From NCBI RefSeq assembly GCF_054482525.1, contig NZ_CM137006.1: 64,000 nucleotides of DNA; one strand, written 5' to 3'. Under the pieces are notes generated by a model. That model saw nothing but the letters and a program-made list of their open reading frames with translations, had not been told where the DNA came from and did no database searches. Positions 7,845 through 44,449 of the stretch are shown in pieces. The translations under genes were made by a program, and so were the position numbers. Numbering within the stretch: the stretch's first letter is position 1; each line of letters begins with the position of its first letter.

Positions 7845-7906
7845 GGCCAAGCCGCAACAGTACTCTATTTTTCTTTGGAGTTAATTGCGGCGCGGCTAGG
7901 GATGTA

Positions 7907-25873: not shown

Positions 25874-25940
25874 AGGCCGCTGCGAAAATAGAACCCCGCA
25901 GCGGCCTCTTTAGCATAACGTCATTGTGCGAACCAATTAT

Positions 25941-26273: not shown

Positions 26274-26296
26274 TTTCCCTTTCCCTTCAACTAGAT

Positions 26297-26593: not shown

Positions 26594-26747
26594 GTTGATT
26601 TCCTTTCAATTAAAGAACCTTAATGACATTACTTAATTATTTCATTTCAATCAACAACATATGGGTTGTTTTTTATCATTCCGACACTATATCTAGGCGA
26701 GATAACTAAAATGGCTAGTTATCACTATACCTCTAAAGGATAAAATA

Positions 26748-27038
26748 ATGGCTGACTTCTACATAACAGCAGTAAAATATGATGAAAATCATGAACATAT
26801 CGTTAAGGTTAAAACACGGCAACGAGTTGATGGTAAGGTTAAAGCACCAAGCATCAATTCTCGCCAATTTATCGTCGAATTGATTAATACCGGAAAGGTA
26901 TCATTTTGGACTGGATTACAGGATAGCGAAGGACGATGGGGAAAAGGGGCTGACGTGACCGTAACCTCTACTGGTTTCCTGACTACATCACCAAATAATA
27001 CCACTCGGGATAACCTCGGCGAATTGCCTGAATTTTAA
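26748..27038 (+). CDS. Hypothetical small protein (96 aa), possibly DUF3892-like (copy 4)
   Basis: Repeat at +26229. Confidence 0.5.
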   Translation: MADFYITAVKYDENHEHIVKVKTRQRVDGKVKAPSINSRQFIVELINTGKVSFWTGLQDSEGRWGKGADVTVTSTGFLTTSPNNTTRDNLGELPEF

Positions 27039-27102
27039 CCAAAAATCAAACGTGCAGTGTAGGTAATACTGCACGTTTGTCTCATTCCTGAGACTCTACC
27101 TT

Positions 27103-27549
27103 TTACTGTTCATCGCCAGTGATTAATTTTCTGGTTAACATCTTTGCACTGTAGCTATATGAACTTAAAGCAGAAACCTGTCTTGCAAGTGATATGATAT
27201 CTTGCTTGTCCAATGTCCTGATGTTCCAGATAATGAAGTTATGGGCATCAGTGGTTTCTTTGTCAGTGTAACCATCTGCTGAAGTGATCAACTTTCTTTC
27301 TGTTGCGTCTTCTTTAACCGCAAGTGCATCACCATGAGCCAAGGTGTTTAAATCCGTACCAGTGATTTTTGCGATTTCGATCACATCACTGAACTTAGGT
27401 TCTGTTTTAGCAGTCGCTATCCTAACAAGTGTCCTTACGTTGATGCCGGTTTTGTCTGCGACTTCTTCGTATGTCCCATGCTCCAGGATAGCTTTCCGTA
27501 TTCTTTCTGCTCGCTTGCTATCAGCCATAACATACAACTCTCGATTCAT
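27103..27549 (-). CDS. HTH regulator, candidate repressor (copy 4)
   Basis: Repeat at +26229. Confidence 0.7.
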   Translation of the reverse strand: MNRELYVMADSKRAERIRKAILEHGTYEEVADKTGINVRTLVRIATAKTEPKFSDVIEIAKITGTDLNTLAHGDALAVKEDATERKLITSADGYTDKETTDAHNFIIWNIRTLDKQDIISLARQVSALSSYSYSAKMLTRKLITGDEQ

Positions 27550-27755
27550 CTTAGGTGCTCCAGTTTACATCACTCTTTTTAGATGCTTTTTTTCATGGAC
27601 AAATATGTCCTTAAAAACAAGACATCGTATTGACAACAGATCTCAACATGCTTAGCATTTATTTGTCCATGACTGAAAGACACATTTGTCTATTGACATG
27701 GTAAATACAGGTAAAAGTCATTTTGATTCATGTTTACTTGACTGCTGAGACACTT

Positions 27756-28808
27756 ATGATCGACTGGTTTACCGGAATCCTGCCTTGCACACACCGACCG
27801 TTACCGGCCGGTAGCGTCGTCAGCGTTGATGCTGATGGTGCGGTGGAGTGGGAAACAGTAAAACGGTTGACCGTTCGCGGTTCGTATGAATCAACGATGA
27901 AAGTAAGATCTGTTGGATCTGATGGCGAAGGTCGGGCAACACATCTTTATATTGATGGGAATCCTTCAAAATTCCTTCAGGGACATTCTGTTATTGGTTC
28001 TGATGATTTGCAGGGACTGGTATTAACCGTATACGCAAGAATACTGGCATTACTTCATATTCCTCATGATCTCCCGTCATATCGTCAGGTAATGTCTGGT
28101 CAGTATAAGATTTCCCGTATTGATATTAATTATATGTATTCATTGTCAACACTGGAAAATGTCCGTGCATGGTTATATGCCGCAGAATTTAAAGCGAAAA
28201 CTCGCCATGGTCGCGCCTGTGGTAAAGGTGGCACTGTTTACTTAGGGAAAAACTCCCGTCGTTGGAGCCTGAAATTTTATTCAAAATATGATGAGCATAT
28301 ATCTGGCAAAAAAGGGCACCAGATGGCAGACGAATTCGTTAAAGCAGGTTTACTGGACTGGTCAAAAGATAAATTACGCATTGAATTAACATTAAGAACA
28401 ACTGAATTAATTGATTTGAATCTTACGCTTGGTAATAGCTGGAATATTCAGACGCCCAATAAATTATTCTCTGACTATGTAGGGAGAATAGAAATGAATC
28501 AAAATACTATATTAACTGATGAAAAAATAATTAATCTCCCAAGAAAAATACAGTCTACATATTTATTGTGGAAGCAGGGCGCGAACATGAAAGAGATGTT
28601 ACCGAAACCTACATTCTACCGACACCGTAAAGAATTACTTTCTTTCGGAATAGATATTAACTTTTATTGTGAGTCACCGGATTCTAATAACGTTGTTCCG
28701 TTGGTTCGTATTCTTGAAGCCAAACCGGCCAAAATTCCATCATGGTTTTATGAGAAAGGTTTAATTTTCGATCATAACCGTATTTCACATGCCAGTAACT
28801 GGTATTAA
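27756..28808 (+). CDS. gII: Replication initiator gII homologue (copy 4)
   Basis: Repeat at +26229; nested gX-like restart at 28494. Confidence 0.85.
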   Translation: MIDWFTGILPCTHRPLPAGSVVSVDADGAVEWETVKRLTVRGSYESTMKVRSVGSDGEGRATHLYIDGNPSKFLQGHSVIGSDDLQGLVLTVYARILALLHIPHDLPSYRQVMSGQYKISRIDINYMYSLSTLENVRAWLYAAEFKAKTRHGRACGKGGTVYLGKNSRRWSLKFYSKYDEHISGKKGHQMADEFVKAGLLDWSKDKLRIELTLRTTELIDLNLTLGNSWNIQTPNKLFSDYVGRIEMNQNTILTDEKIINLPRKIQSTYLLWKQGANMKEMLPKPTFYRHRKELLSFGIDINFYCESPDSNNVVPLVRILEAKPAKIPSWFYEKGLIFDHNRISHASNWY

Positions 28809-28819
28809 AGGAGAGTGAT

Positions 28820-29137
28820 ATGTCTAATTATGGTCTTTTTGTAAAAGGTAAAATGCTTGGTGCTCGCCAGCGTAATAAGGTCAATGGTCAGGGATACTAT
28901 AATGAAATTGGTATTGGCTTAGAGATCCCTGATGGTTTTGGCGGCACTAAGCAAGACCAGATTATTATTCGTGTTTCTCAGGCTCTTGTTAATGCCGGTG
29001 TAATGAATCAGGCAAATAATCTTATCGGTAAGTTAGTCCAGATACCTGTATATGTTCGTGTCTGGTCAATGGAAGGTAGAGAAGGAGTAACTTATAATAT
29101 TTCATCTGACGGTGGAATCACTGAAATAAAAGGTTAA
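28820..29137 (+). CDS. gV: Putative ssDNA-binding protein gV analogue (copy 4)
   Basis: Repeat at +26229. Confidence 0.55.
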   Translation: MSNYGLFVKGKMLGARQRNKVNGQGYYNEIGIGLEIPDGFGGTKQDQIIIRVSQALVNAGVMNQANNLIGKLVQIPVYVRVWSMEGREGVTYNISSDGGITEIKG

Positions 29138-29139
29138 AT

Positions 29140-29226
29140 ATGGCTGATGTTATACAAATATTAATAGCGTCAGGCATTGTTATCTCTTTTGGCCTCGGCG
29201 CAATTACTGCGGGGGTTTTTCGTTAA
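29140..29226 (+). CDS. gVII: gVII analogue (copy 4)
   Basis: Repeat at +26229. Confidence 0.5.
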   Translation: MADVIQILIASGIVISFGLGAITAGVFR

Positions 29227-29321
29227 TGTATATAGCTTATTTCTTCGGGGCTTATACCTTTGGTTTTGCCCTTTTCTACGCGGTCGGTTCATTTAAATCA
29301 TTTTCTGACCGATTAATGTAA
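29226..29321 (+). CDS. gIX: gIX analogue (copy 4)
   Basis: Repeat at +26229. Confidence 0.45.
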   Translation: MYIAYFFGAYTFGFALFYAVGSFKSFSDRLM

Positions 29322-29345
29322 TGTAACTTTAATGGAGTTATTTAT

Positions 29346-29588
29346 ATGAAAGTTTTGTCTTTTGTTAAATCTAAAATTGCAGTAGCTTCAACAGCGCTTT
29401 TTGTTTCTGCGAGTTCTTTTGCGGCAGCTGAGTCTACAGGCGGGACTGATTATGCAGGTCAGGCAATGGATGCATTACTGACTCAGGCAAATGATCTTAT
29501 TGGTAAAGTATGGCCTGTCGTTGTTGCTGTGGTTGGTGCTGGCCTTGCCATTCGTATTTTTAAAAAATTCGCTTCTAAAGCAGTTTAA
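29346..29588 (+). CDS. gVIII: Major coat protein precursor (copy 4)
   Basis: Repeat at +26229. Confidence 0.85.
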
Positions 29589-29634
29589 AATTCACTCAGG
29601 GGCATTTGTTGCCCCTTTATTAAATTGGGTTATT

Positions 29635-30879
29635 ATGAAAAGGAAAATATTAATTACTTTCTCTATTTTTATTTCTTCTTTTTCATATGCTGATTCATGG
29701 GAAAGCATTACTAAATCTACTTTTCAAAGCTCTGCATATGCTGAAAGTAAGCAAATAACCAACCAAGATGGTACTAAACAAACTGTTTATTATATTGATG
29801 CAACCATGCAGGCTTCTTCCTGTCAGGGAGCTAAAGACAGTGCTCAGGTTGTTTTTAATCAGGTTAAACCAACTTATGAGGGAATGTGGCCTAACTCTGA
29901 ATTCCGTCTTGTATTTTCTGACGCTTGTACTTACAGCGACTCTCCAGGCCAGAAAGATAAATACTGGACTTTAACTGCTTATATTATAGGTGATATTCAA
30001 CGATCTATTCCTGATGAAAAACCTTCCGAGCCTACGCCTGAAGAGATTTGTGAAGCTAAACCCCCCGAAGAAGGTGTATTCAATAATGTCTATTCTTATG
30101 ACGGTGATCGTTATATTTATTATAACGGTTGTGAATATGAGGCCACTGGCGTCATTGTTTGCCAGAGTGATAGCACTGTTTGTGCTGCGACATGGAAGCC
30201 TACCGGAACTGTAGCCGCACCTTCAGATAAGCCTTCTTCTCCTGTTGGCGATGGCGGTGATACTGGAGGCGGGGATACGGGTGATGGTGATACCGGTGGA
30301 GGTGATACAGGCGGTGGTAACCCAAGTGGCAGTTCTGGCGGTGGTAATGGCTCAAGTATCACCAAAGGAGATATTCAGTCAGCTATCGAAGGTGCTTCAC
30401 CTAAAATTGCCAGTGAGATTCATGATAAGTTAACAGAAAAAGATACCTCATCTGATGATAAAAAGTCGGCTGATGAACAGACTAAAAATAATATAAATCG
30501 TCTTGTTGACTCTATAAATAACCTTACTCGCGGAGCCGGACGTTTTGCTGATCCTTCTGGCGGCGATTCCCGTTATGGGGAGGGGGGGTCTGAATTAGAT
30601 AGCGCTTCCACTTTAGCTGAATCTGAATTAGGAATTGCAAAGGATTCTCATGGTGCGTTATGGGAGGCTTTCTTAAATAAAGGTGCTATGTTGCCCAATT
30701 TACCTAATGGTAATGGTTGTTCTGATTTTATTATTTTCCCCGGAGAGGTTTATCAGATCGATATTGGCTGCGATAAATTACTGACTATTAAAAATGCTCT
30801 TTCATGGGTTTTTTATTGCCTTACGTTCTGGTATGTATTTACTTCTTTAACTTCATTGCTTCGTAAAGGTGGTGAGTGA
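29635..30879 (+). CDS. gIII: Adsorption protein pIII (copy 4)
   Basis: Repeat at +26229. Confidence 0.8.
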
Positions 30880-31220
30880 TGCCTTTATTATTAGGTATTC
30901 CTGCATTGTTGCGTTTTCTTATTGGTCTTGTTCCTTTACTTATTGGCTATGCGGCAAGTTTTTTAGCTCGGCTTGCAACCAAAACAGGTTTAATAGCGGT
31001 TGCATTGGTTGCGCTAATTACAACAACTGTTACGCTTTTAATGCAGTACCTTGCTGAGGTCATGTATATCGGGTTACCCGCTGATTTTTCACATCTAATG
31101 GCGTCTGTACTGCCTGACCATTTTCAGGCGTGTGTTAACGTTATTATGGTTACTCGTATCAGTGTTTTTGTTTTCGATTTAAAACAAAAATTTCTTGATT
31201 ATGCAAACAGGGTGATTTAA
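30876..31220 (+). CDS. gVI: Minor coat protein pVI (copy 4)
   Basis: Repeat at +26229. Confidence 0.8.
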
Positions 31221-32315
31221 ATGGCGGTTCATGTAGTAACAGGCAAATTAGGCTCAGGCAAGACACTGGTTAGTGTTTCCAGAATACAGGAAAGACTGGC
31301 TAAGGGTTGTCCTGTTGCCACTAATCTTGATCTTAAATTGCATAATATGCCTATGGTTGGGCGTTATGCTAAAAAAACGCGCGTTATTCGTGTTCCTGAT
31401 AAGCCTTCATTAAATGATTTACTGGCTATTGGTATTGGAAATACATCTTACGATGAATCCCGCAATGGCCTTTTAGTGCTTGATGAATGTGGTACTTGGT
31501 TTAATTCCCGTTCATGGGGTGATAAAGACAGACAACCTGTTATTGACTGGTTTTTACATGCCCGTAAATTAGGTTGGGATATTATTTTTTTGATTCAGGA
31601 TATTTCGATAATGGATAAGCAAGCTCGTCTGGCACTTGCTGAACATGTTGTTTATTGTCGCCGTTCAGATAAATTAAACATTCCTTTTATTGGCTCTATT
31701 ATAAATTTAGTTTCAGGAGCGCGATTTTCTTTACCAAAGGTACACTTTGGTATTGTTAAATATGGTGATAACGTTAATTCAATTACTGTTGATAAATGGA
31801 TATACACCGGAAAATCATTATATTCCGCCTACAATACAAAACAGGTTTTTACTGATAACTATCCGCATGGTGCTTATTCTCTTTTACCGCCATTTATTAC
31901 ACATGGCCAGTTTTCTGTTCACAAAGGACTTAATTATTATATGCGCCTCACGAAAATTTATTTCCGAAAATCAAACCGATTAATATTAATGCTTTCATTT
32001 TTTGCCTTTGGGCTTGGGCTTGGCTTCTGGCTACAATCTGGTAAGAATGCCGATGAAATTTCGGCTATTAAATCAGTTCATGCTGAACAGGTGAGGGCGG
32101 TAACACCTGACAGTACCAGCGATTTACCGAGACTTTCTATTGATTCTTTCTCTCAGCTTGGTTTTGATGTTTCTGTTACGTTTGTTGACGCTAAGGGTAT
32201 GAAGTACCAGTATTTTGATTTAATTAAAGATGGTTATTCCGTTGATATTAAAGATGCCTGCCGAATTGTTATCAGAAAAGGCCATTATTTACAAAGCGTC
32301 ACCTGTCAGGAGTAA
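31221..32315 (+). CDS. gI: Assembly ATPase pI (copy 4)
   Basis: Repeat at +26229; nested pXI-like restart at 31941. Confidence 0.9.
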   Translation: MAVHVVTGKLGSGKTLVSVSRIQERLAKGCPVATNLDLKLHNMPMVGRYAKKTRVIRVPDKPSLNDLLAIGIGNTSYDESRNGLLVLDECGTWFNSRSWGDKDRQPVIDWFLHARKLGWDIIFLIQDISIMDKQARLALAEHVVYCRRSDKLNIPFIGSIINLVSGARFSLPKVHFGIVKYGDNVNSITVDKWIYTGKSLYSAYNTKQVFTDNYPHGAYSLLPPFITHGQFSVHKGLNYYMRLTKIYFRKSNRLILMLSFFAFGLGLGFWLQSGKNADEISAIKSVHAEQVRAVTPDSTSDLPRLSIDSFSQLGFDVSVTFVDAKGMKYQYFDLIKDGYSVDIKDACRIVIRKGHYLQSVTCQE

Positions 32316-32322
32316 TATTACT

Positions 32323-33588
32323 ATGCGTTTATTTTGCATTGCCATCTTATTCATTTATTCTTTTTGTGTTTCTGCTGAAACTGTTAATCTTAATAATTCA
32401 TCCGTTCGTTCATTTGTCCAGTGGTATTCATCAAAAACTGGTAAGCCTGTTATTGTTAACCCCGATGTTAAAGGCTCCGTAACAGTATTTAATGCTGATG
32501 TTAATCCCACAAATATTGATGACTTTTTCAAATCTGTTCTGAATGCTAATGGATTTGTCATGCTTTCTGGTAATCCTGCGGTAGTATCTTTGCCGTCAAA
32601 ATTACCGTCACAGATGGCATCAGACCCTGATGATTCCGATAATCAGTCTTATGACTCTTTTCCGCCAGAGCCATCCTGTCAGCCAGCGCCTGTGGCGCTC
32701 ACTGTCAGAAATTTTAAGCTGACAAAAGTACGAGCGTCTGATGTTCAGCAACTGGTTAAAATTTATCTGGATTCGAATGGCGGGGGTAATGTCGTGGATT
32801 ATCCCGGCAATAACTCCCTGATTGTATCTGCGCCTGACGAGCTACTGCCTGTTCTGTCCAATTTCATTAACTCAGTTGATGTTGCCCGTGATCAGGTACT
32901 CATTCAATCGCTCATGTTTGAAACCAGTTTGTCTGATGGTGTTGATTTGTCATTTGCAGCTGGCTCTGCATCCGGCCATAAGGTGGCGGGGGGTTTTAAT
33001 ACTTCTGCGCTGGGTAATGCTCTTTCTACGGTGGGCGGCTCTTTTGGTATTTTTGATGGTAACGTGTTGGCGCTGTCTCTGCGTGCTGTCCAGAGTAATT
33101 CACGCTCTAAGGTGATTTCAACACCGCGCATTCTTACTCAGTCCGGTCAGACTGGTTATATTTCCGTAGGTAAGAATGTGCCGTTTATCACAGGAAAGGT
33201 AACGGGTGAATCTGCTGGGGTAAATAATCCGTTTCAGACTATCGAACGTCATGATGTTGGCGTTTCTCTCAAGGTAACGCCTGTTGTCATGGGGAACGGG
33301 CAATTAGTTTTGACCATCGATACCCGCGCCGATTCAATCAGCAATGATGACCAAGCATCTGATATTATTACTAATCAGCGCCAGATTCAGACCACTGTTC
33401 AGATTAAGGATGGCCAGACTCTCTTACTTGGTGGGTTGATTGATTCATCATCCAGCAATGCTGACCGTTCTGTACCATTTATCAGCAAAATTCCGGTAAT
33501 TGGCTGGCTTTTCAGGAGTAAAGCTGACAGTAATGAGCAACGCATTATGTATGTCCTGCTGACTGCTCATATTATTCGTGCGCTTTGA
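32323..33588 (+). CDS. gIV: Secretin pIV (copy 4)
   Basis: Repeat at +26229. Confidence 0.9.
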   Translation: MRLFCIAILFIYSFCVSAETVNLNNSSVRSFVQWYSSKTGKPVIVNPDVKGSVTVFNADVNPTNIDDFFKSVLNANGFVMLSGNPAVVSLPSKLPSQMASDPDDSDNQSYDSFPPEPSCQPAPVALTVRNFKLTKVRASDVQQLVKIYLDSNGGGNVVDYPGNNSLIVSAPDELLPVLSNFINSVDVARDQVLIQSLMFETSLSDGVDLSFAAGSASGHKVAGGFNTSALGNALSTVGGSFGIFDGNVLALSLRAVQSNSRSKVISTPRILTQSGQTGYISVGKNVPFITGKVTGESAGVNNPFQTIERHDVGVSLKVTPVVMGNGQLVLTIDTRADSISNDDQASDIITNQRQIQTTVQIKDGQTLLLGGLIDSSSSNADRSVPFISKIPVIGWLFRSKADSNEQRIMYVLLTAHIIRAL

Positions 33589-34135
33589 TGGGGCCGTGGC
33601 GGGTGCGTTAAGCCCCGGTATGGCCCCATCAAGAGCCAGATTTTACGTCTCACCACGGAGCCTCTATATGGCCTTAAAACTGACAGGATATGAACAGAAA
33701 AACATCTTCTAGGTGATTCAATTACTTAGAGGTTTTTATGTCTGTAAAAAGTAGGGGCGCGATCGACTTCCTGGTGGTCGCCTGAAGTCTTACCGTCGTG
33801 TTGGTTCACATTTTACCAGTTGTTCCAAGTGGTTTGATAAATCACCGTCCTGGTATCGCAATATGATGATGACCCGGCCAGAGCGCCGTGAAGTCAGAAA
33901 GCTTCTCAATCAGGTTGTACGTGGCCGTGACGCTGACGGCATCGCATTTCCGGTCAGCAACAAGCCATTTGCATGGCGGTGGTGAACATTTTTAGCCGCT
34001 AAAACTTCATGCTGACGGAATTATCGAAAACCCCGTACAGCAACAAAACTTGTTTTTGTTGCTGTACGGGGTTGGCCAAGCCGCAACAGTACTCTATTTT
34101 TCTTTGGAGTTAATTGCGGCGCGGCTAGGGATGTA

Positions 34136-34381
34136 TCAGACTTTAATCTTAACTACTTTTTCAGTGCCGGTCATAAAACTAACCAGCTTCTTGCGGCCAT
34201 CGGGATACTCTTTAATGACACATCCTTCTGGCGTATTTTTTTCAGCGTAATAAATAGGGACGCCACTAAGAAGACAGGCTCGGGCTGCTTCACCGACATC
34301 ATGTTCTAGTTGCTGCTCGAAAACAGTCAAGAACTCTGCTTCCTCTGATGGTGTCATTTCAGCTAAATATGATAAGTCCAT
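34136..34381 (-). CDS. orf81 hypothetical accessory protein (copy 4)
   Basis: Repeat at +26229. Confidence 0.45.
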   Translation of the reverse strand: MDLSYLAEMTPSEEAEFLTVFEQQLEHDVGEAARACLLSGVPIYYAEKNTPEGCVIKEYPDGRKKLVSFMTGTEKVVKIKV

Positions 34382-34583
34382 AAATGCTCATGCCTTCTGT
34401 AATTCATTGCTTAGTAACAATGATGAACAGGCCTGATTGGTGAGGTCAGGCTGTTCACTTACTGCTGACAGACATTTGATTCTGATTCGTTTGGAGAAAC
34501 GGATGATTTTGAATCATTGTCGATAGTAACCAGTTGACGGCCAGTGTCAACGATCCCCGCCAGATTCTGCCATCCTTACCATT

Positions 34584-34611
34584 GGTGCGCATAATGTATA
34601 TTATGTTAAAT
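34584..34611 (+). other. dif: Chromosomal dif site (XerC arm, 6-bp central region, XerD arm)
   Basis: Exact 28-mer GGTGCGCATAATGTATATTATGTTAAAT, the canonical E. coli dif as recalled; phage sequence ends within or next to the central region. Confidence 0.93.
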
Positions 34612-34779
34612 GGAATTTGAGTGATGCGAAGCGATTTTCCAGTCGTCGTTATTACTTCAGGGTTCCAGAACATAAAGCCTCTCCTCTTTCATGATTGGCC
34701 TGTGCATACCGGATATAGGCTGGCAGGTTTGCCGTTTGCCGCATCTTCCCTGCGTTGAAGAGTCAGGCTGGCAAACTGC

Positions 34780-35034
34780 GTGCAAATGAACACCCCCTCT
34801 TTCTATCAACACTTCAGACAGCTTGCGGGAATGAGTTCACTCCGGTATCAGAAATGGCTACGCCTCAATGAAGCCAGGCGACTGATGCTGAATGAACATT
34901 ACGATGTCACCACTGCAGCCTATGCTGTCGGTTACGAAAGCTTATCCCATTTCAGTCGGGAATATTCGCGGATATTTGGAGAGTCACCTAAGAGAGATAT
35001 TACTAAATTAAGAAAGCCTCTTGGTCAGCTTTAA
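34780..35034 (+). pseudogene. yneL: AraC-family HTH C-terminal fragment (yneL-like remnant)
   Basis: 84-aa ORF matching only the C-terminal HTH-containing part of AraC/XylS regulators; position next to dif matches the K-12 yneL pseudogene as recalled. Confidence 0.55.
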
Positions 35035-35467
35035 TAAACCCTGCACTTATCTGGTTAGAGCATTTCGGCATTAGTTTCACTATGCAAACATTAACCATAG
35101 CTAATGATTTATAGCCATATAAACCATTAGTCGCTCTTGACTTTTCCTGACACTTCCCTTGTTCGCAATAATATTCTGTTTAGTCGCTGTTTATAAATAT
35201 CATGCATAATGAAATCGTCATGTTATTTAGCGACATAAAATGTCTTTGCAAATACTCTCTACAACAAGTGCTGCAATAAACTTGTTGTGATTAGGTGTCC
35301 TTGTAATTTAAAGATATTATCGTTCTTCGTGAAATGTAATAACCCTGGAAACTATATTCTCAGGGCAACAACCAATTAAGAATGATTCTTGTTTTATAAG
35401 CAATAACAGAATGACTTAATTGTTAACTCTCTTTATTCAGCTACTTAAATATAAATTTTGGAGAATT

Positions 35468-36031
35468 ATGAAACTCAAACATGTCGGTATGATTGTCGTT
35501 TCTGTGTTGGCGATGTCGTCTGCTGCGGTAAGCGCAGCCGAGGGTGATGAATCAGTAACGACCACTGTTAATGGCGGTGTTATTCATTTTAAAGGTGAAG
35601 TGGTAAATGCCGCTTGTGCGATTGATTCAGAATCAATGAACCAAACGGTTGAGCTGGGTCAGGTTCGTTCTTCTCGCCTGGCAAAAGCGGGTGACCTCAG
35701 CTCTGCCGTTGGCTTCAATATCAAGCTGAATGATTGTGATACCAATGTTTCCAGTAATGCAGCTGTTGCATTCCTGGGTACTACTGTCACCAGTAATGAC
35801 GATACCTTAGCGCTGCAGAGTTCAGCGGCAGGCTCTGCCCAAAATGTCGGTATTCAAATTTTGGACCGTACGGGGGAGGTATTAATACTTGATGGTGCCA
35901 CTTTTAGCGCTAAAACCGACTTGATTGATGGCACGAATATACTGCCATTCCAGGCTCGTTATATTGCTCTCGGGCAGTCAGTAGCTGGTACTGCAAACGC
36001 TGATGCGACCTTCAAAGTTCAATATCTATAA
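35468..36031 (+). CDS. Fimbrial major subunit (FimA-like), F9-type chaperone-usher operon
   Basis: 187 aa from the ATG with GGAG Shine-Dalgarno; signal peptide ending AVSAAEG; type 1 fimbrial subunit features (Cys pair, C-terminal beta-strand ending FKVQYL). Confidence 0.85.
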
Positions 36032-36384
36032 TTCAATCTTAAGATGGCTATACGTCATCTGAAATTGAAACAGGGTGTGTGTTGCATGGCTACGCACACC
36101 CGAGCAATTCACCAATGTTCATCTCATTATTAATGAGGAATAGTTTGTGTTTTGGAGCGGTATGAAAAAATCACATAATATCTAAACGATCAATAAACAA
36201 CAGTAGTTAAACTTACTGTTATTTAAAATATTTACTTTGTAGCAAGGTTTTCCTATTAAAAGAGAACCAACATTTATTACAAACGCATTAAGTCTGGAAA
36301 CCCGGCGAGTCGCCAATGTATTAGCAACATTTACCGATTGTCTGATGTAACGGTTTCCCCGCTTATCCTCTTAACACATGGAGA

Positions 36385-37104
36385 ATGCATCAGATGCAAA
36401 CTACGCGTACCCCCTACTCTATTTCCTTTATGGCGACAGTGTTACTTTTATTGCTCTTTGCTTGCCATAGCACCGTTGCCAACGCAGCTGTCGCACTGGG
36501 TGCGACGCGGGTAATTTATCCGGCAAACCAGAAACAGGTTTTATTGCCTGTCACGAATAATGATCCTGCCAGTGTCTATCTCATTCAGTCATGGATAGAA
36601 AATGCAGGTGACCAAAAAGACACCCAGTTTGTCATTACGCCACCGCTTTTTTCCATGCAAGGTAAAAAAGAGAATACGCTGCGGATAATCAACGCCACTA
36701 ATCATCAGTTACCAGGCGACCGTGAAAGCCTGTTCTGGGTTAATGTCAAAGCTATTCCTGCTATGGAAAAAGACCAGAAGAATGAGAATACATTACAGCT
36801 GGCAATTATTAGCCGCATAAAAATGTTTTATCGCCCCACGAACCTGGCAATGGCACCTGAAGAAGCGCCTGCAATGCTTCGGTTTCGTCGCAGCGGTAGC
36901 AAACTTACTCTTATTAATCCAACGCCCTACTTCATTACCGTAACAAATATGAAAGCAGGAAATAGCAATCTCCCAAATACCATGGTGCCGCCAAAAGGTG
37001 ATGTATCGGTGGATATCCCGCATGCTGCAACCGGGGATATCAGTTTTCAGACGATCAATGATTACGGTGCATTAACTCCGCGTATTAAGGCAACCATGCA
37101 GTAA
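36385..37104 (+). CDS. Periplasmic fimbrial chaperone (PapD/FimC-like)
   Basis: 239-aa ORF with signal peptide and chaperone N-domain motifs; start may be a downstream in-frame ATG (36394 or 36430). Confidence 0.8.
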   Translation: MHQMQTTRTPYSISFMATVLLLLLFACHSTVANAAVALGATRVIYPANQKQVLLPVTNNDPASVYLIQSWIENAGDQKDTQFVITPPLFSMQGKKENTLRIINATNHQLPGDRESLFWVNVKAIPAMEKDQKNENTLQLAIISRIKMFYRPTNLAMAPEEAPAMLRFRRSGSKLTLINPTPYFITVTNMKAGNSNLPNTMVPPKGDVSVDIPHAATGDISFQTINDYGALTPRIKATMQ

Positions 37105-37145
37105 ACCAGTGACCTAATTAATAATAAACTCAATCGGAATTAATA

Positions 37146-39797
37146 ATGACAGCCTTTCGTGCCGCATTTAAGGCATATCGTATGCATCAGGTATTACTAC
37201 TGCCTCGCTTTGCACGGCTTACCATTGCCCTTGGCTTAGCAACTGCGGTTTTTCCCGTTGACGCAGAGTATTATTTTAATCCACGGTTTTTAAGCAATGA
37301 TCTTGCTGAATCTGTCGATTTATCCGCCTTTACTAAGGGACGCGAGGCACCACCTGGTACATATCGGGTCGACATTTATTTGAACGACGAATTTATGACT
37401 AGTCGGGATATTACTTTTATTGCAGATGATAATAATGCAGATCTCATCCCATGCCTGAGTACAGACCTTCTTGTCAGTCTTGGCATAAAAAAATCAGCAT
37501 TATTAGACAATAAGGAACATTCGGCAGAAAAACATGTGCCGGACAACAGCGCATGCACACCACTTCGGGATCGTTTGGCTGACGCATCATCTGAGTTTAA
37601 TGTTGGTCAGCAACATCTATCACTCTCCGTTCCGCAAATTTATGTTGGCAGAATGGCTCGCGGCTATGTTTCTCCTGATCTGTGGGAAGAAGGAATAAAT
37701 GCTGGGCTTCTAAACTATAGTTTTAATGGTAATTCTATTAATAATCGTAGTAACCATAATGCAGGAAAATCCAACTATGCATATTTGAATTTACAGAGTG
37801 GCATCAACATTGGTAGTTGGCGACTGCGCGATAACTCAACGTGGAGTTATAACAGTGGGATTAGCAATTCATCTGACAGCAATAAATGGCAGCATATCAA
37901 TACGTCGGCTGAACGTGACATTATTCCCTTACGCTCACGCTTAACGGTAGGTGATAGTTATACCGATGGCGATATTTTTGATAGTGTGAACTTTCGTGGC
38001 CTCAAAATAAATTCAACAGAAGCGATGTTGCCCGATAGCCAACATGGTTTCGCTCCGGTGATTCATGGTATTGCCCGCGGCACCGCACAAGTGAGTGTAA
38101 AACAGAATGGATACGATGTTTATCAGACTACTGTCCCACCCGGCCCTTTTACTATTAATGATATCAACTCTGCGGCCAATGGTGGTGATCTGCAAGTAAC
38201 CATAAAAGAGGCAGACGGCAGTATTCAGACATTATATGTTCCTTATTCGTCTGTTCCTGTTCTCCAACGTGCTGGATATACGCGTTATGCGCTTGCCATG
38301 GGGGAATATCGTAGTGGAAATAATCTGCAAAGCTCCCCCAAGTTCATACAAGGTAGCTTGATGCATGGGCTGGAAGGAAACTGGACACCTTATGGCGGAA
38401 TGCAAATTGCAGAAGATTATCAGGCCTTCAACCTTGGTATTGGTAAAGATTTAGGACTTTTTGGTGCCTTTTCTTTCGATATCACGCAGGCCAATACGAC
38501 ACTTGCAGATGGCACCCGTCACAGCGGGCAATCGATTAAATCCGTCTACAGCAAATCCTTCTACCAGACGGGAACCAATATCCAGGTCGCAGGATATCGC
38601 TATTCTACGCAAGGTTTTTATAACTTATCCGACAGTGCCTACAGTCGAATGAGTGGTTACACCGTCAAGCCTCCTACCGGAGACAGCAACGAGCAGACAC
38701 AATTTATTGATTATTTTAATCTGTTCTACAGTAAGCGTGGTCAGGAACAAATAAGCATCTCTCAGCAGCTTGGAAATTACGGTACGACATTTTTCAGTGC
38801 CAGTCGCCAAAGTTACTGGAACACGTCACGCAGCGACCAGCAAATATCATTTGGATTAAATGTGCCGTTTGGTGATATTACGACTTCGCTGAATTACAGC
38901 TATTCCAATAATATATGGCAAAACGATCGGGATCATTTACTTGCTTTTACGCTTAATGTTCCCTTCAGTCATTGGATGCGTACAGACAGTCAGTCGGCAT
39001 TTCGTAATTCAAACGCCAGTTACAGTGTGTCAAACGATTTGAAAGGCGGCATGACCAATCTATCGGGGGTTTATGGTACTCTGCTGCCGGATAATAACCT
39101 GAATTATAGCGTTCAGGTCGGTAACACCCACGGAGGTAATACATCGTCTGGCACCAGTGGTTACAGTTCTCTTAATTATCGTGGAGCTTACGGTAATACT
39201 AATGTCGGTTACAGTCGGAGTGGGGACAGCAGCCAGATTTATTACGGAATGAGTGGTGGCATTATTGCTCATGCTGATGGCATCACCTTTGGACAGCCGC
39301 TGGGCGACACAATGGTTCTGGTTAAGGCTCCTGGCGCTGATAATGTCAAAATAGAGAACCAGACCGGAATTCATACCGACTGGCGTGGCTATGCCATATT
39401 ACCATTTGCGACAGAATATAGAGAAAATCGTGTCGCTCTTAACGCGAATTCCCTTGCAGATAATGTTGAACTGGATGAAACCGTGGTCACTGTCATCCCA
39501 ACTCACGGTGCTATTGCCAGAGCAACATTTAATGCACAAATCGGCGGGAAAGTATTAATGACGTTGAAGTACGGTAATAAGAGCGTTCCATTCGGTGCAA
39601 TTGTCACACACGGAGAGAATAAAAATGGCAGCATTGTCGCGGAAAACGGTCAGGTTTATCTGACTGGACTTCCACAGTCAGGGAAATTACAGGTTTCATG
39701 GGGCAAAGATAAAAACTCAAACTGTATTGTCGAGTACAAGCTTCCTGAAGTTTCTCCTGGTACCTTACTGAACCAGCAGACAGCAATCTGTCGCTAA
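37146..39797 (+). CDS. ydeT: Outer-membrane fimbrial usher (FimD-like), intact
   Basis: 883 aa, usher family by size and sequence character (YFNPRFL motif near the N-terminus); recalled as a truncated pseudogene (ydeT) in K-12. Confidence 0.85.
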   Translation: MTAFRAAFKAYRMHQVLLLPRFARLTIALGLATAVFPVDAEYYFNPRFLSNDLAESVDLSAFTKGREAPPGTYRVDIYLNDEFMTSRDITFIADDNNADLIPCLSTDLLVSLGIKKSALLDNKEHSAEKHVPDNSACTPLRDRLADASSEFNVGQQHLSLSVPQIYVGRMARGYVSPDLWEEGINAGLLNYSFNGNSINNRSNHNAGKSNYAYLNLQSGINIGSWRLRDNSTWSYNSGISNSSDSNKWQHINTSAERDIIPLRSRLTVGDSYTDGDIFDSVNFRGLKINSTEAMLPDSQHGFAPVIHGIARGTAQVSVKQNGYDVYQTTVPPGPFTINDINSAANGGDLQVTIKEADGSIQTLYVPYSSVPVLQRAGYTRYALAMGEYRSGNNLQSSPKFIQGSLMHGLEGNWTPYGGMQIAEDYQAFNLGIGKDLGLFGAFSFDITQANTTLADGTRHSGQSIKSVYSKSFYQTGTNIQVAGYRYSTQGFYNLSDSAYSRMSGYTVKPPTGDSNEQTQFIDYFNLFYSKRGQEQISISQQLGNYGTTFFSASRQSYWNTSRSDQQISFGLNVPFGDITTSLNYSYSNNIWQNDRDHLLAFTLNVPFSHWMRTDSQSAFRNSNASYSVSNDLKGGMTNLSGVYGTLLPDNNLNYSVQVGNTHGGNTSSGTSGYSSLNYRGAYGNTNVGYSRSGDSSQIYYGMSGGIIAHADGITFGQPLGDTMVLVKAPGADNVKIENQTGIHTDWRGYAILPFATEYRENRVALNANSLADNVELDETVVTVIPTHGAIARATFNAQIGGKVLMTLKYGNKSVPFGAIVTHGENKNGSIVAENGQVYLTGLPQSGKLQVSWGKDKNSNCIVEYKLPEVSPGTLLNQQTAICR

Positions 39798-39810
39798 GGA
39801 ACAATAGATT

Positions 39811-40341
39811 ATGAAATACAATAACATTATTTTCCTCGGTTTATGTCTGGGGTTAACCACCTATTCTGCTTTATCCGCAGATAGCGTTATTAAAATTAGC
39901 GGGCGCGTCCTCGATTATGGCTGCACAGTCTCATCGGATTCGCTTAATTTTACCGTAGATCTCCAAAAAAACAGTGCCAGACAATTTCCAACGACCGGTA
40001 GCACAAGTCCAGCCGTCCCTTTTCAGATTACGTTAAGTGAATGCAGTAAAGGGACAACGGGGGTTCGGGTTGCATTTAACGGTATTGAGGATGCAGAAAA
40101 TAATACTCTGTTGAAACTGGATGAAGGAAGCAATACGGCCTCCGGTTTGGGTATAGAAATACTGGACGGAAATATGCGTCCGGTGAAATTGAATGACCTT
40201 CATGCCGGGATGCAGTGGATCCCACTGGTACCAGAACAGAACAATATTTTGCCTTACTCCGCTCGTCTGAAGTCAACTCAGAAGTCCGTCAATCCGGGAC
40301 TGGTGAGGGCTTCGGCAACCTTTACCCTTGAATTTCAATAA
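39811..40341 (+). CDS. ydeS: Fimbrial minor subunit
   Basis: 176 aa with signal peptide; size and order match K-12 ydeS. Confidence 0.8.
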   Translation: MKYNNIIFLGLCLGLTTYSALSADSVIKISGRVLDYGCTVSSDSLNFTVDLQKNSARQFPTTGSTSPAVPFQITLSECSKGTTGVRVAFNGIEDAENNTLLKLDEGSNTASGLGIEILDGNMRPVKLNDLHAGMQWIPLVPEQNNILPYSARLKSTQKSVNPGLVRASATFTLEFQ

Positions 40342-40353
40342 TCAGAGTCAGAT

Positions 40354-40857
40354 ATGAAAAGACTTCACAAGAGGTTCCTGTTAGCTACGTTTTGCGCGTT
40401 ATTCACAGCAACTCTCCAGGCCGCCGATGTCACTATCACTGTTAATGGTCGGGTAGTCGCTAAACCCTGCACTATTCAAACCAAAGAAGCTAACGTTAAT
40501 CTCGGGGATCTTTATACGCGCAATCTGCAACAACCTGGTTCTGCATCAGGGTGGCACAATATTACTTTGTCATTAACCGATTGTCCGGTTGAAACAAGTG
40601 CAGTGACGGCAATCGTGACAGGTTCAACTGACAATACGGGTTATTACAAAAATGAAGGTACTGCCGAAAATATTCAGATAGAGCTAAGGGATGACCAGGA
40701 TGCGACGTTAAAAAATGGCGATAGCAAAACGGTTATTGTTGATGAGATCACTCGTAATGCACAGTTTCCACTTAAGGCAAGAGCTATCACGGTGAATGGA
40801 AACGCAAGCCAGGGAACGATCGAGGCGCTAATCAATGTGATCTACACCTGGCAATAA
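40354..40857 (+). CDS. ydeR: Fimbrial minor subunit
   Basis: 167 aa with signal peptide; size and order match K-12 ydeR. Confidence 0.8.
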   Translation: MKRLHKRFLLATFCALFTATLQAADVTITVNGRVVAKPCTIQTKEANVNLGDLYTRNLQQPGSASGWHNITLSLTDCPVETSAVTAIVTGSTDNTGYYKNEGTAENIQIELRDDQDATLKNGDSKTVIVDEITRNAQFPLKARAITVNGNASQGTIEALINVIYTWQ

Positions 40858-40916
40858 CGTCGATTCGATTTTCTTAGCCTCCTTTTTAAATCAATTTTTT
40901 AACCTTAGGATATATC

Positions 40917-41831
40917 ATGGGTAAAACAATAAGTATGAAGCTTCTGTTCGGTATTTATCTTCTATTAATGGCAGGCAAAGTTTTTGCCTTCAGTTGTAAT
41001 GTCGATGGCGGGTCAAGTATTGGAGCAGGTACAACCTCTGTTTATGTTAATCTCGACCCTGTAATACAACCGGGCCAGAATCTGGTTGTAGACTTGTCTC
41101 AGCATATAAGTTGCTGGAATGATTACGGCGGCTGGTACGACACTGATCATATAAACCTGGTACAAGGCTCAGCTTTCGCAGGCTCTCTACAGTCATATAA
41201 AGGATCGCTGTACTGGAATAATGTGACCTACCCCTTCCCGTTGACGACAAATACTAATGTATTAGATATTGGTGATAAGACACCGATGCCATTACCGTTA
41301 AAACTCTATATTACCCCAGTCGGGGCGGCCGGTGGAGTTGTCATAAAAGCCGGGGAAGTTATTGCCCGTATTCATATGTATAAAATTGCCACGTTAGGAA
41401 GCGGAAATCCGCGTAATTTTACGTGGAATATTATTTCAAATAACAGTGTTGTTATGCCAACAGGCGGCTGCACTGTTGATAGTCGTAATGTCACCGTGAA
41501 TCTCCCGGACTTTCCTGGAAGCGCAGAAATACCCCTTGGCGTATATTGCTCAAGCGAACAAAAGCTCTCATTTTATCTTTCGGGTGCCACCACTGACAGT
41601 GCCCGACAAGTGTTTGCTAACACAGCACCAGATGCAACAAAAGCATCGGGAGTGGGTGTCTCTCTGATGCGTAATGGAAAAATACTGGCTACGGGAGAAA
41701 ACGTCTCCCTGGGGACAGTAAATAAAAGCAAAGTACCTCTGGGTTTAAGCGCAACCTATGGACAAACAGGAAACAAGGTTGCAGCCGGAACAGTTCAGTC
41801 AGTCATTGGTGTCACTTTTATCTATGAATAA
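40917..41831 (+). CDS. ydeQ: FimH-like two-domain fimbrial tip adhesin
   Basis: 304 aa with signal peptide; adhesin-sized last gene of the operon; size matches K-12 ydeQ. Confidence 0.8.
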
Positions 41832-41903
41832 TTGTGATTTTGACATTAGTCTATGCGTTCCATTCACGAAAATTGTGCGGATAATTATTTTGTGAAGGCT
41901 ATT

Positions 41904-41921
41904 ATCCTACACTTGTAAGAA
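41904..41921. promoter_or_regulatory. EvgA-box-like inverted repeat upstream of ydeP
   Basis: ATCCTACA-CT-TGTAAGAA resembles the recalled EvgA consensus TTCYTACA-N2-TGTARGAA; ydeP is a known EvgA target. Confidence 0.5.
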
Positions 41922-42169
41922 AATCCGCGCACAATTGAAGCCAGAGTCTTATTTTTTATATTGAAAAACATGTTAATTTAAACACTATGAGAGATGATGC
42001 TTAACTTATCGTATTTATACCATTCTATTATTTAACGATAATAGGTTAAAAATAGATAGAGAGTAGTCCCCTACTCTTATATATCCATATTGACGATAAT
42101 CCCTTTGTATATACTGTGCATCATCGCTATTACAAATCCTAATAATTCATTTCCACACAGGATAAGCAG

Positions 42170-44449
42170 ATGAAGAAAAAAATTGAATCCTACCAGGGAG
42201 CTGCCGGTGGATGGGGTGCTGTTAAATCCGTAGCAAATGCAGTACGTAAGCAGATGGATATACGCCAGGATGTTATTGCCATGTTTGACATGAATAAGCC
42301 AGAGGGCTTTGACTGTCCGGGATGTGCATGGCCAGATCCTAAGCACAGTGCGTCATTCGACATTTGTGAAAACGGCGCAAAAGCAATCGCCTGGGAAGTC
42401 ACGGATAAGCAGGTAAATGCCTCTTTCTTTGCTGAGAATACGGTTCAATCATTACTTACCTGGGGAGATCACGAGCTTGAGGCTGCGGGGCGTCTCACCC
42501 AGCCTTTGAAATATGATGCCGTCAGCGACTGTTACAAGCCATTAAGCTGGCAACAAGCTTTCGACGAAATTGGCGAACGCCTTCAAAGCTATAGTGATCC
42601 CAATCAGGTTGAATTCTATACTTCGGGCCGCACTTCCAATGAAGCTGCCTTTCTTTATCAGCTTTTTGCTCGTGAATACGGGAGCAATAACTTCCCCGAC
42701 TGCTCCAACATGTGCCATGAACCGACCAGTGTGGGTTTGGCAGCGAGTATCGGTGTAGGTAAAGGGACCGTGTTGCTGGAAGACTTTGAGAAATGCGATT
42801 TAGTCATTTGCATTGGGCATAACCCTGGTACAAACCACCCTCGCATGTTGACTTCGTTGCGCGCTTTAGTGAAACGGGGAGCGAAAATGATCGCCATCAA
42901 TCCTCTACAGGAACGTGGCCTGGAGCGATTTACCGCACCGCAAAACCCGTTTGAAATGCTGACGAACTCTGAGACTCAGTTGGCCAGTGCCTACTACAAC
43001 GTGCGCATTGGTGGTGATATGGCGTTGCTCAAGGGGATGATGCGCCTGTTAATTGAGCGCGATGATGCTGCAAGCGCCGCAGGTCGGCCCTCATTGCTGG
43101 ATGACGAATTTATTCAAACGCATACCGTCGGCTTTGACGAGCTACGCCGTGACGTTCTCAATTCCGAGTGGAAAGATATCGAGCGTATTTCTGGACTAAG
43201 TCAGACTCAAATCGCCGAACTGGCTGATGCATATGCCGCTGCCGAACGCACCATTATCTGTTACGGAATGGGGATCACTCAGCACGAACATGGTACCCAG
43301 AATGTACAGCAACTGGTCAATCTGCTGTTGATGAAAGGTAACATTGGCAAGCCTGGTGCGGGTATCTGCCCACTACGAGGTCACTCTAATGTACAGGGCG
43401 ACCGAACCGTCGGTATCACCGAGAAACCGTCTGCAGAGTTTCTGGCTCGCCTGGGTGAGCGCTATGGTTTCACCCCACCTCATGCACCTGGACATGCTGC
43501 AATTGCCAGCATGCAAGCAATATGTACGGGGCAGGCTCGAGCATTGATCTGCATGGGGGGCAACTTTGCACTGGCAATGCCAGATCGGGAAGCGAGCGCT
43601 GTACCGTTAACGCAATTAGATTTGGCGGTACACGTAGCCACTAAGCTTAACCGCTCTCATCTGCTGACCGCACAGCATAGCTATATTCTGCCGGTTCTTG
43701 GGCGTAGCGAGATTGACATGCAAAAAAGCGGTGCGCAGGCGGTAACCGTTGAGGATTCAATGTCGATGATTCATGCCTCGCGTGGCGTGTTAAAACCCGC
43801 CGGTGTAATGCTGAAATCAGAGTGTGCAGTGGTCGCGGGTATCGCGCAGGCGGCACTACCCCAGAGCGTGGTAGCCTGGGAGTATCTGGTGGAAGATTAT
43901 GATCGCATTCGCAATGACATTGAAGCTGTGCTGCCAGAATTCGCCGACTATAACCAGCGCATCCGACATCCTGGAGGTTTTCACCTGATAAACGCAGCTG
44001 CTGAAAGGCGCTGGAGGACGTCGTCAGGTAAGGCTAATTTCATTACCAGCAAAGGGCTGTTAGAAGATCCCTCTTCAGCGTTTAACAGTAAGCTGGTCAT
44101 GGCGACAGTGCGCAGTCACGATCAGTACAATACGACGATTTATGGTATGGATGATCGCTATCGAGGGGTATTCGGTCAACGAGATGTGGTCTTTATGAGT
44201 GCTAAACAAGCTAAAATTTGCCGTGTGAAAAACGGCGAAAGAGTTAATCTTATTGCGCTCACGCCAGACGGTAAGCGCAGCTCACGCCGCATGGATAGAT
44301 TAAAAGTGGTCATTTACCCTATGGCTGACCGCTCACTGGTGACCTATTTTCCAGAATCGAATCACATGCTAACACTTGATAACCACGATCCATTAAGTGG
44401 CATTCCTGGCTATAAAAGTATTCCGGTTGAATTAGAACCATCAAATTAA
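42170..44449 (+). CDS. ydeP: Acid-resistance-associated molybdopterin oxidoreductase YdeP
   Basis: 759 aa; N-terminal Cys motif [11 protein letters not shown]; formate-dehydrogenase-like family; size and sequence match E. coli YdeP as recalled. Confidence 0.9.

Follow-up and report, generated by a model that had tools for sequence, protein, structure and literature searches.

In the 64,000-nucleotide window analysed here (RefSeq assembly GCF_054482525.1, contig NZ_CM137006.1), positions 35468-41831 of the plus strand almost certainly hold the intact, ancestral F9 (Fml/Yde) chaperone-usher fimbrial operon of Escherichia coli, which has six genes and is paralogous to the type 1 (fim) system. 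Judged from its DNA, the operon is complete and apparently functional, and it occupies its usual chromosomal place beside the dif site; its sequence contains nothing that speaks against this reading. The locus is already described and ordinary; the source strain has retained all genes of the F9/Fml pilus, which is of little importance beyond annotation. Since the ligand-binding domain of its adhesin is that of the FmlH targeted by galactoside anti-adhesives and vaccines, those reagents should apply to the source lineage.

Gene content and integrity of the operon

The first-pass annotation had described an intact six-gene operon of the F9 type with these limits, and this proves correct to the base: translation gives six uninterrupted ORFs without internal stops, their Pfam domains agree, and PGAP annotates identical DNA in strain PCN033 as six CDS with zero pseudogene flags and the same outer coordinates. 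The genes are as follows.

35468-36031, plus strand: major subunit (FimA-like pilin), 187 aa; signal peptide of about 23 aa; Pfam Fimbrial, E = 5.9e-31
36394-37104 (PGAP start), plus strand: periplasmic chaperone (FimC-like), 236 aa; Pfam PapD_N 8e-40, PapD_C 1.4e-11
37146-39797, plus strand: outer-membrane usher (FimD-like), full length, 883 aa; Pfam PapC_N, Usher 1.2e-198, PapC_C
39811-40341, plus strand: minor subunit YdeS (FimF-like adaptor), 176 aa; Pfam Fimbrial; best solved relative FimF, 5.3e-39
40354-40857, plus strand: minor subunit YdeR (FimG-like adaptor), 167 aa; Pfam Fimbrial; best solved relative FimG, 1.3e-60
40917-41831, plus strand: tip adhesin FmlH/YdeQ, 304 aa; 24-aa signal peptide; lectin domain mature 1-160, pilin domain 161-280

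The F9 operon has been defined as a six-gene set (PMC3966885), and comparison of ORFs and Pfam domains recovers that set here, the matches running in gene order from Fimbrial through PapD_N with PapD_C, PapC_N with Usher and PapC_C, and Fimbrial twice to FimH_man-bind (E-values down to 1e-198). Among solved structures, the Fim counterpart is the best relative of each of the six proteins. For the major subunit (PGAP CDS WP_001296758.1 in PCN033) this is FimA (E = 7.5e-68), and the protein is the same as that of O157:H7 (dN = 0). The chaperone, which would have 239 aa if translated from the first ATG at 36385, is closest to FimC (2.9e-88) and SfaE, and its conserved subunit-anchoring Arg ('GATRVIYP') and Lys ('NVKAIP') both align with those of FimC. 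The usher covers positions 1-549 of the 549 in the Pfam Usher model and aligns end to end with FimD structures (1145-1159 bits). YdeS matches its K-12 namesake at 176 of 177 compared positions (stop codon counted), and the N-terminal donor strand of YdeR, ADVTITVNGRVVAKP, is one residue different from that of FimG. The operon thus has the make-up of a chaperone-usher pilus with an usher of the FimD-like group, namely a two-domain PapD-like chaperone, a full-length usher with N-terminal, pore/plug and C-terminal domains, pilins with a signal peptide and an N-terminal donor strand, and a two-domain adhesin that starts directly with its lectin domain (alignment to mature FimA, FimF, FimG and FimH/FmlH). 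The signal-peptide cleavage sites coincide with the first mature residues of Fim/FmlH chains in solved structures.

Purifying selection on the operon is continuing, since each of the six genes has a dN/dS of 0-0.19 in comparisons with three other lineages, and their lengths are preserved in lineages up to ~10 % diverged at the nucleotide level. Synteny is conserved as well: ydeP starts at 42170, immediately downstream, and the arrangement of ydeP downstream with the hipBA/dif side upstream is shared by PCN033, K-12, O157 and strain 4/0, the hipBA side being displaced in the window by a prophage array. Assignment to F9 follows from this position between ydeP and the hipBA side, from an FmlH/YdeQ orthologue with a galactoside-binding pocket and from the promoter mapped in strain CFT073. 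Compared with the known F9/Fml/Yde loci (CFT073 c1936-c1931, the F9 operon of O157:H7 and the K-12 remnant ydeT-ydeS-ydeR-ydeQ; PMC3966885), the six-gene order, flanks, promoter and transcription start are the same; there is no difference of substance, and the locus here has an inovirus array at the adjoining dif. The G+C content of the region is ~42-45 %, versus 50.7 % for the PCN033 genome, which fits a target of H-NS. An Rfam scan of positions 33500-42500 (E <= 1) returned no known RNA element, the sole match being a chance-level one to OxyS (23 bits, the gathering score being 75).

The FmlH adhesin

The adhesin had been called FimH-like in the first-pass annotation, which gave FmlH-like adhesins for the intact F9 operons of several pathogenic E. 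coli, and the comparison with FmlH and YdeQ proposed there identifies it as FmlH. Its lectin domain is identical at 160 of 160 positions to crystallised FmlH (PDB 6AOW/5LNE), and the whole protein shows 98.0 % identity to FmlH of strain UTI89 and 97.7 % to YdeQ of K-12. All six ligand-contacting pocket residues are kept (F1, Y46, D53, K132, N140 and R142; roles from Kalas et al. 2018, PMC5866590). FimH_man-bind is the best Pfam domain, and the Fimbrial match is sub-threshold (23.1 bits versus a cut-off of 25.6). Mature residues 1-160 are those of the FmlH of uropathogenic E. coli (PDB 6AOW, 6ARM and 5LNE), and the UTI89 allele differs from the present one at three pilin-domain and three signal-peptide positions; whereas the UTI89 record has an operon with a 1.9-kb deletion, the operon here is whole.

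Promoter, spacer and regulation

Two non-coding features of the operon are relevant to its regulation.

35181-35217, plus strand: f9 promoter, read from the sequence; -35 TAGTCG at 35181-35186, 18-bp spacer, -10 CATAAT at 35205-35210, start G at 35217
36032-36393, plus strand: AT-rich non-coding spacer of 362 bp that separates the chaperone gene from that of the major subunit

The transcription start lies 251 nt ahead of the major-subunit ATG. The promoter is an exact match to that of CFT073, where promoter and start were mapped by 5'-RACE (PMC3966885), and it was recovered in six comparison loci with 0-3 mismatches. Consensus scans for promoters and terminators gave counts not above shuffled expectation and missed this experimentally mapped promoter; hence, they were not used. 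In CFT073, H-NS silences F9 at 37 °C, and low temperature lifts this silencing (PMC3966885). Because the strains studied express F9 poorly at 37 °C, with wild-type expression only at 20 °C (PMC3966885), the operon could be silent in practice.

Within the spacer, a G+C-rich hairpin at 36073-36101, 42 nt past the major-subunit stop, is formed by the inverted repeat GGGTGTGTGTTGC/GCTACGCACACCC (folding z-score -3.4); it may be an attenuator or a stem that stabilises the mRNA, and so fix how much major subunit is made relative to the assembly proteins. Type 1 fimbriae (fimAICDFGH) have fimI where F9 has this spacer, and neither fimI nor a degraded fimI or other small gene was found in its 362 bp, all ORFs confined to it being <=44 aa. 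Type 1 fimbriae are also controlled by the fimB/fimE/fimS switch, whereas the F9 operon is without recombinases or an invertible promoter: no fimB/fimE-type recombinase gene lies near the operon among the ORFs of the window or in the PGAP annotation of PCN033, and the inverted repeats are only short and AT-rich. The sole candidate for a fimS-like switch, a 10-nt inverted repeat (90 %) flanking the promoter at 35188-35197 and 35393-35402, was rejected; when inversion of 35198-35392 was modelled, the junctions matched in 0 of 5426 complete genomes. Lacking a FimI-like subunit and a fimB/fimE-type switch, F9 would appear to differ from type 1 pili in termination and in phase control, if any.

Proposed assembly and function

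It is by homology with the Fim system, together with published work on F9 and FmlH, that we infer expression, assembly and ligand binding in the source strain. FimA, FimC, FimD, FimF, FimG and FimH each have a one-to-one paralogue here, and the same assembly is expected. All six precursors would be exported by Sec; the FimC-like chaperone would fold and cap each pilin by donor-strand complementation, and the FimD-like usher would build the fibre tip-first via donor-strand exchange. The predicted order is FmlH adhesin, YdeR (FimG-like), YdeS (FimF-like) and, behind these, a rod built of FimA-like major subunits. At the tip, the FmlH lectin would bind terminal galactosides (Gal-beta1-3-GalNAc, i.e. 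TF antigen, and Gal-beta1-3-GlcNAc) and not mannose. Transcription would begin at the G at 35217; as in CFT073, H-NS probably keeps it off at 37 °C, and low temperature would lift the silencing.

Distribution and closest genomes

At the F9 locus, the DNA of the window is 100 % identical to the corresponding locus of PCN033, an extraintestinal pathogenic E. coli (ExPEC) of porcine origin, serotype O11 and phylogroup D whose genome paper already lists F9 (PMC4578781). To the right of dif, the window comes nearest, among complete genomes, to PCN033, SCU-102 (human) and 19KM1776 (dog); the source lineage is closest to one porcine ExPEC, one human and one dog isolate. This allele is found at >=99 % identity in only 4 records of the genome collection. 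The locus itself is widespread: some part of it occurs in 5361 of 5426 complete genomes, and >=80 % of its length lies in one place in 3588 of them, including O157:H7, O111 and environmental strains; about a third of the genomes are without most of the locus in one place, as a result of several independent deletions or IS insertions. Likewise, an intact F9 was reported in 25 of 42 genomes, commensals among them (Wurpel et al. 2014, PMC3966885).

The K-12 strain MG1655 is without the DNA of window positions 35290-38570, where the major subunit, chaperone and N-terminal part of the usher are encoded, and retains, from 38571 onward, the C-terminal usher fragment ydeT along with ydeS, ydeR and ydeQ. 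This bears out the earlier statements that the K-12 locus is degraded, with a truncated usher and neither major subunit nor chaperone; the host, which the first-pass annotation had thought probably not K-12-like, does differ from K-12 at F9. The accompanying suggestion of an ExPEC-type host deserves less weight than it was given: an intact F9 is the majority, common state in E. coli, so that it excludes a K-12-like locus and is not a marker of ExPEC or pathotype, given the 3588 genomes and the commensals just cited. The hint of an ExPEC source comes from the PCN033 match and not from F9.

The dif site and the adjoining prophage

Upstream of the operon, the following elements adjoin one another.

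1-34597, plus strand: tandem array of identical 8743-bp filamentous (inovirus) prophage units, >=3.96 copies, the base at position i being equal to that at i + 8743 for i = 1 to 25854
34584-34611, plus strand: chromosomal dif site (XerCD target), a perfect 28/28 match with 0 expected by chance

The array exceeds the left edge of the window and ends on the right within dif, at 34597. Each unit encodes G2P, G5P, G3P, Zot and a secretin (Pfam) as well as a major coat protein and a repressor (PHROGs), and hybrid dif-like sites at the junctions between units start at 8355, 17098 and 25841. This filamentous-phage gene set, the intact dif on one side and the hybrid sites between copies identify a dif-integrating inovirus according to the published paradigm (PMC4266046). 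By organisation, the array resembles the CUS-1/YpfPhi type, with which it shares the inovirus gene set, integration at dif, an intact 3' dif, imperfect junction dif sites and tandem copies; for YpfPhi, 2-4 copies are reported, and the >=3.96 copies in the window are at the top of that range. In the phage collection there was only a weak 6 % match, to gene I of Lineavirus I22 (75.5 %). No complete genome among the 5426 has the unit at >=80 % coverage and only 659 have any match; the array is absent from PCN033, SCU-102 and 19KM1776. Identity between the window and PCN033 begins 2 bp left of dif.

The dif site precedes the first codon of the operon by 856 bp, and its position relative to f9 is the same in PCN033, O157:H7, strain 4/0 and K-12, with distances of 804-863 bp in three prophage-free strains. 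The first-pass annotation had remarked that operon and prophage sit within 1 kb of each other; the distance is right, at 870 bp from the array's end in dif to the major-subunit ATG, and the implied weight is not, since the closeness is a consequence of dif lying ~0.85 kb upstream of f9, also in prophage-free strains, and is not a functional linkage. There is a slim chance that an AT-rich, multi-copy inovirus array ~585 bp upstream of the f9 -35 hexamer alters F9 expression, in which case H-NS redistribution or residual read-through would couple carriage of a dif phage to adhesin output.

Alternative interpretations

The operon might be intact on paper but cryptic, i.e. permanently silenced by H-NS, without a part in adhesion and a step towards a decayed locus such as that of K-12, UTI89 and all phylogroup A strains. 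The repression at 37 °C noted above, the AT-richness of the operon and the third of genomes without most of the locus in one place all speak for such a state; however, the low dN/dS with preserved gene lengths, the unaltered mapped promoter and the published in vivo phenotypes of fmlH in CFT073 (PMC5866590) make it unlikely. The reading of the operon as an additional set of mannose-binding type 1 fimbriae has next to no probability and is refuted at the sequence level. PGAP does name the major subunit 'type 1 fimbrial major subunit FimA', and the reading could also draw on the adhesin's FimH_man-bind domain and on the nearness of all six proteins to solved Fim structures. Yet the adhesin is only 50.5 % identical to FimH overall and 46.8 % in the lectin domain, it has substitutions at five residues of the FimH pocket or tyrosine gate (Q133K, N135A, Y137L, D140N and F142R), and the pocket is of the galactoside type, as in the identical FmlH domain, versus the mannose type of FimH. 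The FimH mannose-binding pocket, fimS with FimB/FimE and fimI are all missing, and the operon is next to ydeP and not at the fim locus.

A single virulence island at the terminus, acquired horizontally and made up of fimbrial operon and filamentous prophage, is likewise extremely improbable. The 870 bp between them, a G+C content below the genome average in both and the link of CUS-1-type prophages to ExPEC fitness (PMC4266046) would suit an island, but the F9 sequences stand at the same place in 5361 of 5426 genomes when the prophage unit is matched in so few, and only 6 genomes share the prophage-end/dif/flank junction. With an identical operon and dif but no prophage in PCN033, and dif 804-863 bp from f9 in the prophage-free strains, this empty-site comparison rules the island out and leaves an ancestral F9 operon beside which an inovirus has entered dif.

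The 5' region between dif and the operon

One further element lies between dif and the promoter.

34780-35034, plus strand: truncated yneL-like gene of an AraC-family regulator, reduced to its C-terminal HTH; Pfam HTH_18 5.6e-20

Its N-terminus is missing on the side that faces dif, and the PGAP annotations of PCN033, K-12 and O157 class the gene as a partial pseudogene. The F9 literature describes a 'variable 5' region' and a truncated regulator gene without mention of dif, and mobile elements targeted to dif may explain both.

Gene content and integrity of the F9 operon

Window 35468-41831 contains six plus-strand ORFs with no internal stops, which together form the F9 (Fml or Yde) chaperone-usher fimbrial operon of E. 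coli. Its features are as follows.

35468-36031, plus strand: major subunit, 187 aa; Pfam Fimbrial; closest solved structure FimA (7.5e-68)
36032-36393: non-coding, AT-rich spacer of 362 bp after the major-subunit gene
36394-37104, plus strand: chaperone, 236 aa; Pfam PapD_N and PapD_C; closest solved structure FimC (2.9e-88)
37146-39797, plus strand: usher, 883 aa; Pfam PapC_N, Usher (1.2e-198, full model) and PapC_C; closest solved structure FimD
39811-40341, plus strand: minor subunit YdeS, 176 aa; Pfam Fimbrial; closest solved structure FimF (5.3e-39)
40354-40857, plus strand: minor subunit YdeR, 167 aa; Pfam Fimbrial; closest solved structure FimG (1.3e-60)
40917-41831, plus strand: adhesin, 304 aa; Pfam FimH_man-bind and a sub-threshold Fimbrial match

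The gaps between the genes are, in order, 362, 41, 13, 12 and 59 bp, and an in-frame ATG further 5' at 36385 would give a chaperone of 239 aa. For all F9 proteins but the adhesin, the nearest solved structure is the matching type 1 pilus component, the usher aligning end-to-end with FimD structures at 1145-1159 bits. Because the F9 proteins align to the mature chains of solved structures, their signal-peptide cleavage sites are fixed. Window 35000-42200 is 100 % identical to the porcine ExPEC strain PCN033, where NCBI's annotation pipeline calls these six CDS too, with equal outer coordinates and without a pseudogene flag. The first-pass annotation, which had proposed an intact six-gene operon with a full-length usher and plausible signal peptides, is therefore accurate in its observation, and its interpretation holds; the operon is well characterised, already known and here in its common intact state, and F9 is already in the list given in the genome paper for the PCN033 lineage (PMC4578781).

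When the six genes were compared with those of O157:H7, a phylogroup-B2 UTI strain and a lineage approximately 10 % diverged at the nucleotide level, dN/dS ranged from 0 to 0.19 and all lengths were identical, indicating clear purifying selection and counting against a decaying locus. Presumably, the fimbriae are expressed, assembled and capable of binding in the source strain.

In relation to the fim operon, the F9 spacer occupies the exact place of fimI, and F9, unlike type 1 fimbriae, has no FimI-type subunit. The 5' part of the spacer forms a strong G+C-rich hairpin (36073-36101) that would be the usual attenuator or stabiliser found after a major-subunit gene.

The adhesin

The best match of the adhesin is the F9 adhesin FmlH rather than FimH, with residues 25-184 identical (160/160) to PDB 6AOW/5LNE. 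The residues reported to contact Gal-beta1-3-GalNAc and synthetic galactosides, i.e. F1, Y46, D53, K132, N140 and R142 (PMC5866590), are all kept at the same mature positions. Identity to FimH is only 50.5 % over the entire protein and 46.8 % within the lectin domain, and at the mannose-pocket positions where FimH has Q133, N135, Y137, D140 and F142, the adhesin has K, A, L, N and R, respectively. Since the full-length adhesin shares 98.0 % identity with the UTI89 FmlH allele and 97.7 % with K-12 YdeQ, YdeQ and FmlH represent one orthologue.

Distribution of F9 and the source lineage

As stated for K-12 in the first-pass annotation, the locus is degraded in MG1655, which is missing window 35290-38570; the deletion begins 3' of the promoter and takes out the genes for the major subunit and the chaperone together with the initial ~475 codons of the usher gene. 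What remains is ydeS, ydeR, ydeQ and ydeT, the last of which encodes a C-terminal fragment of the usher. A different deletion of 1896 bp, equivalent to window 38665-40560, is present in the UTI89 record NZ_CP062985.1 (locus L002, 5108-5110), where ydeS is removed and the usher is joined to ydeR, in agreement with the classification of UTI89 F9 as 'disrupted' (PMC3966885). Thus, the FmlH allele that matches the crystallised lectin domain comes from a strain whose F9 operon is disrupted. Among 5426 complete genomes, F9 is at least partly present in 5361 and at least 80 % present in one place in 3588 (66 %), a figure similar to the 25 of 42 genomes with intact F9 in the literature (PMC3966885). 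O157:H7, O111:H8 and isolates from animals and the environment are among the full-length carriers, and the whole operon is therefore not a marker of ExPEC, although it does rule out a K-12-like or phylogroup-A-like locus, which upholds at F9 the view that the host is not K-12-like. An intact yet markedly divergent allele (90.3 % nucleotide identity, dS 0.2-0.47) occurs at 1884-8247 of locus L005 (NZ_AP027764.1, strain 2017-02-2CC), preceded by an ankyrin-repeat gene and IS/hydrolase fragments, with no dif found in the 1.9 kb upstream examined.

The proposal of an ExPEC-type host is nonetheless plausible, on the basis of the neighbouring lineage and not of F9. The window lacks phylotyping markers. 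The 24.9 kb to the right of dif are essentially identical to PCN033 (O11, phylogroup D; PMC4578781), SCU-102 (human) and 19KM1776 (dog), with the next genomes at 98.5 % or less. Over the 19.6 kb compared to the right of dif, the window departs from PCN033 by just three substitutions (at 49215, 53673 and 54154), which shows that this part of the chromosome descends from a very recent shared ancestor.

The dif-F9 neighbourhood

The following features lie to the left of the operon.

1-34597: head-to-tail array of at least 3.96 copies of an 8743-bp prophage unit, all identical, continuing past the left edge
25941-26593 and 34136-34381, minus strand: cargo ORFs near the unit ends, recurring in each unit
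34584-34611: dif, perfect match
34780-35034: yneL-like AraC-family HTH gene remnant, N-terminus truncated on the dif-facing side
35181-35186 (TAGTCG), 35205-35210 (CATAAT) and 35217 (G), plus strand: f9 promoter, an exact match to the CFT073 arrangement

The adhesin operon and the filamentous prophage had been remarked upon as lying within 1 kb of each other. That adjacency is real at dif, but it is a by-product, because the dif-f9 neighbourhood is ancestral: from dif to the f9 ATG downstream of it, the distance is 804-863 bp in PCN033, O157:H7 and strain 4/0, and K-12 has dif at the corresponding position. In PCN033, this dif and f9 occur without the prophage, and the sequence diverges from the window 2 bp left of dif. 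The f9 promoter region in the window is intact despite the prophage. The F9 paper describes truncated regulators in a 'variable 5' region' and never names dif (PMC3966885); dif-targeted elements are a reasonable, if putative, explanation for that variability. The yneL-like remnant, which is common to K-12, O157 and PCN033, may be a casualty of past dif events or a lost F9 regulator.

Promoter and regulation

In CFT073, 5'-RACE placed the f9 transcription start at a G 251 nt 5' of the ATG, with a -35 box (TAGTCG), an 18-bp spacer and a -10 box (CATAAT); H-NS binds f9 directly, and expression occurs at 20 °C (PMC3966885). The 37-nt promoter string has 0-3 mismatches in every comparison locus, and the operon's low G+C content (about 42-45 % vs 50.7 % for the PCN033 genome) fits with an H-NS target. 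The locus has neither a fimB/fimE-type recombinase nor a convincing invertible element. The only inverted repeat flanking the promoter, an imperfect 10-nt one (35188-35197/35393-35402), encloses the -10 box and the transcription start; as the modelled inversion between its arms is seen in 0 of the 5426 genomes, it is probably chance in AT-rich DNA.

The inovirus array

Each prophage unit encodes G2P, G5P, a major coat protein, G3P, a DUF5455/minor coat protein, Zot/pI, a pIV secretin and an HTH repressor, with a terminator-like hairpin 3' of the secretin gene (33706-33732). Internal junctions carry the hybrid site GGTGCGCATAATGTGCTACACGTTATGT, which shares 20 of 28 positions with dif, including all of the XerC arm and the three central-region nucleotides next to it; the intact dif stands at the array's right end, an anatomy as reported for YpfPhi/CUS-1 (PMC4266046). 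A perfect inovirus array of at least 3.96 copies at dif is rare: none of the complete E. coli genomes in the collection has the unit at ≥80 % coverage, and the right junction is found in only six genomes. The closest relatives cover 79 % of the unit and differ at its two ends. Cargo ORFs of 110 and 98 aa have no reliable family match (for the latter, sub-threshold YbjQ_2 only), and the sole match of an 81-aa ORF is phrog_21003, of unknown function. On E. coli plasmids, 465 places match part of the unit, taken as the copy at 25855-34597.
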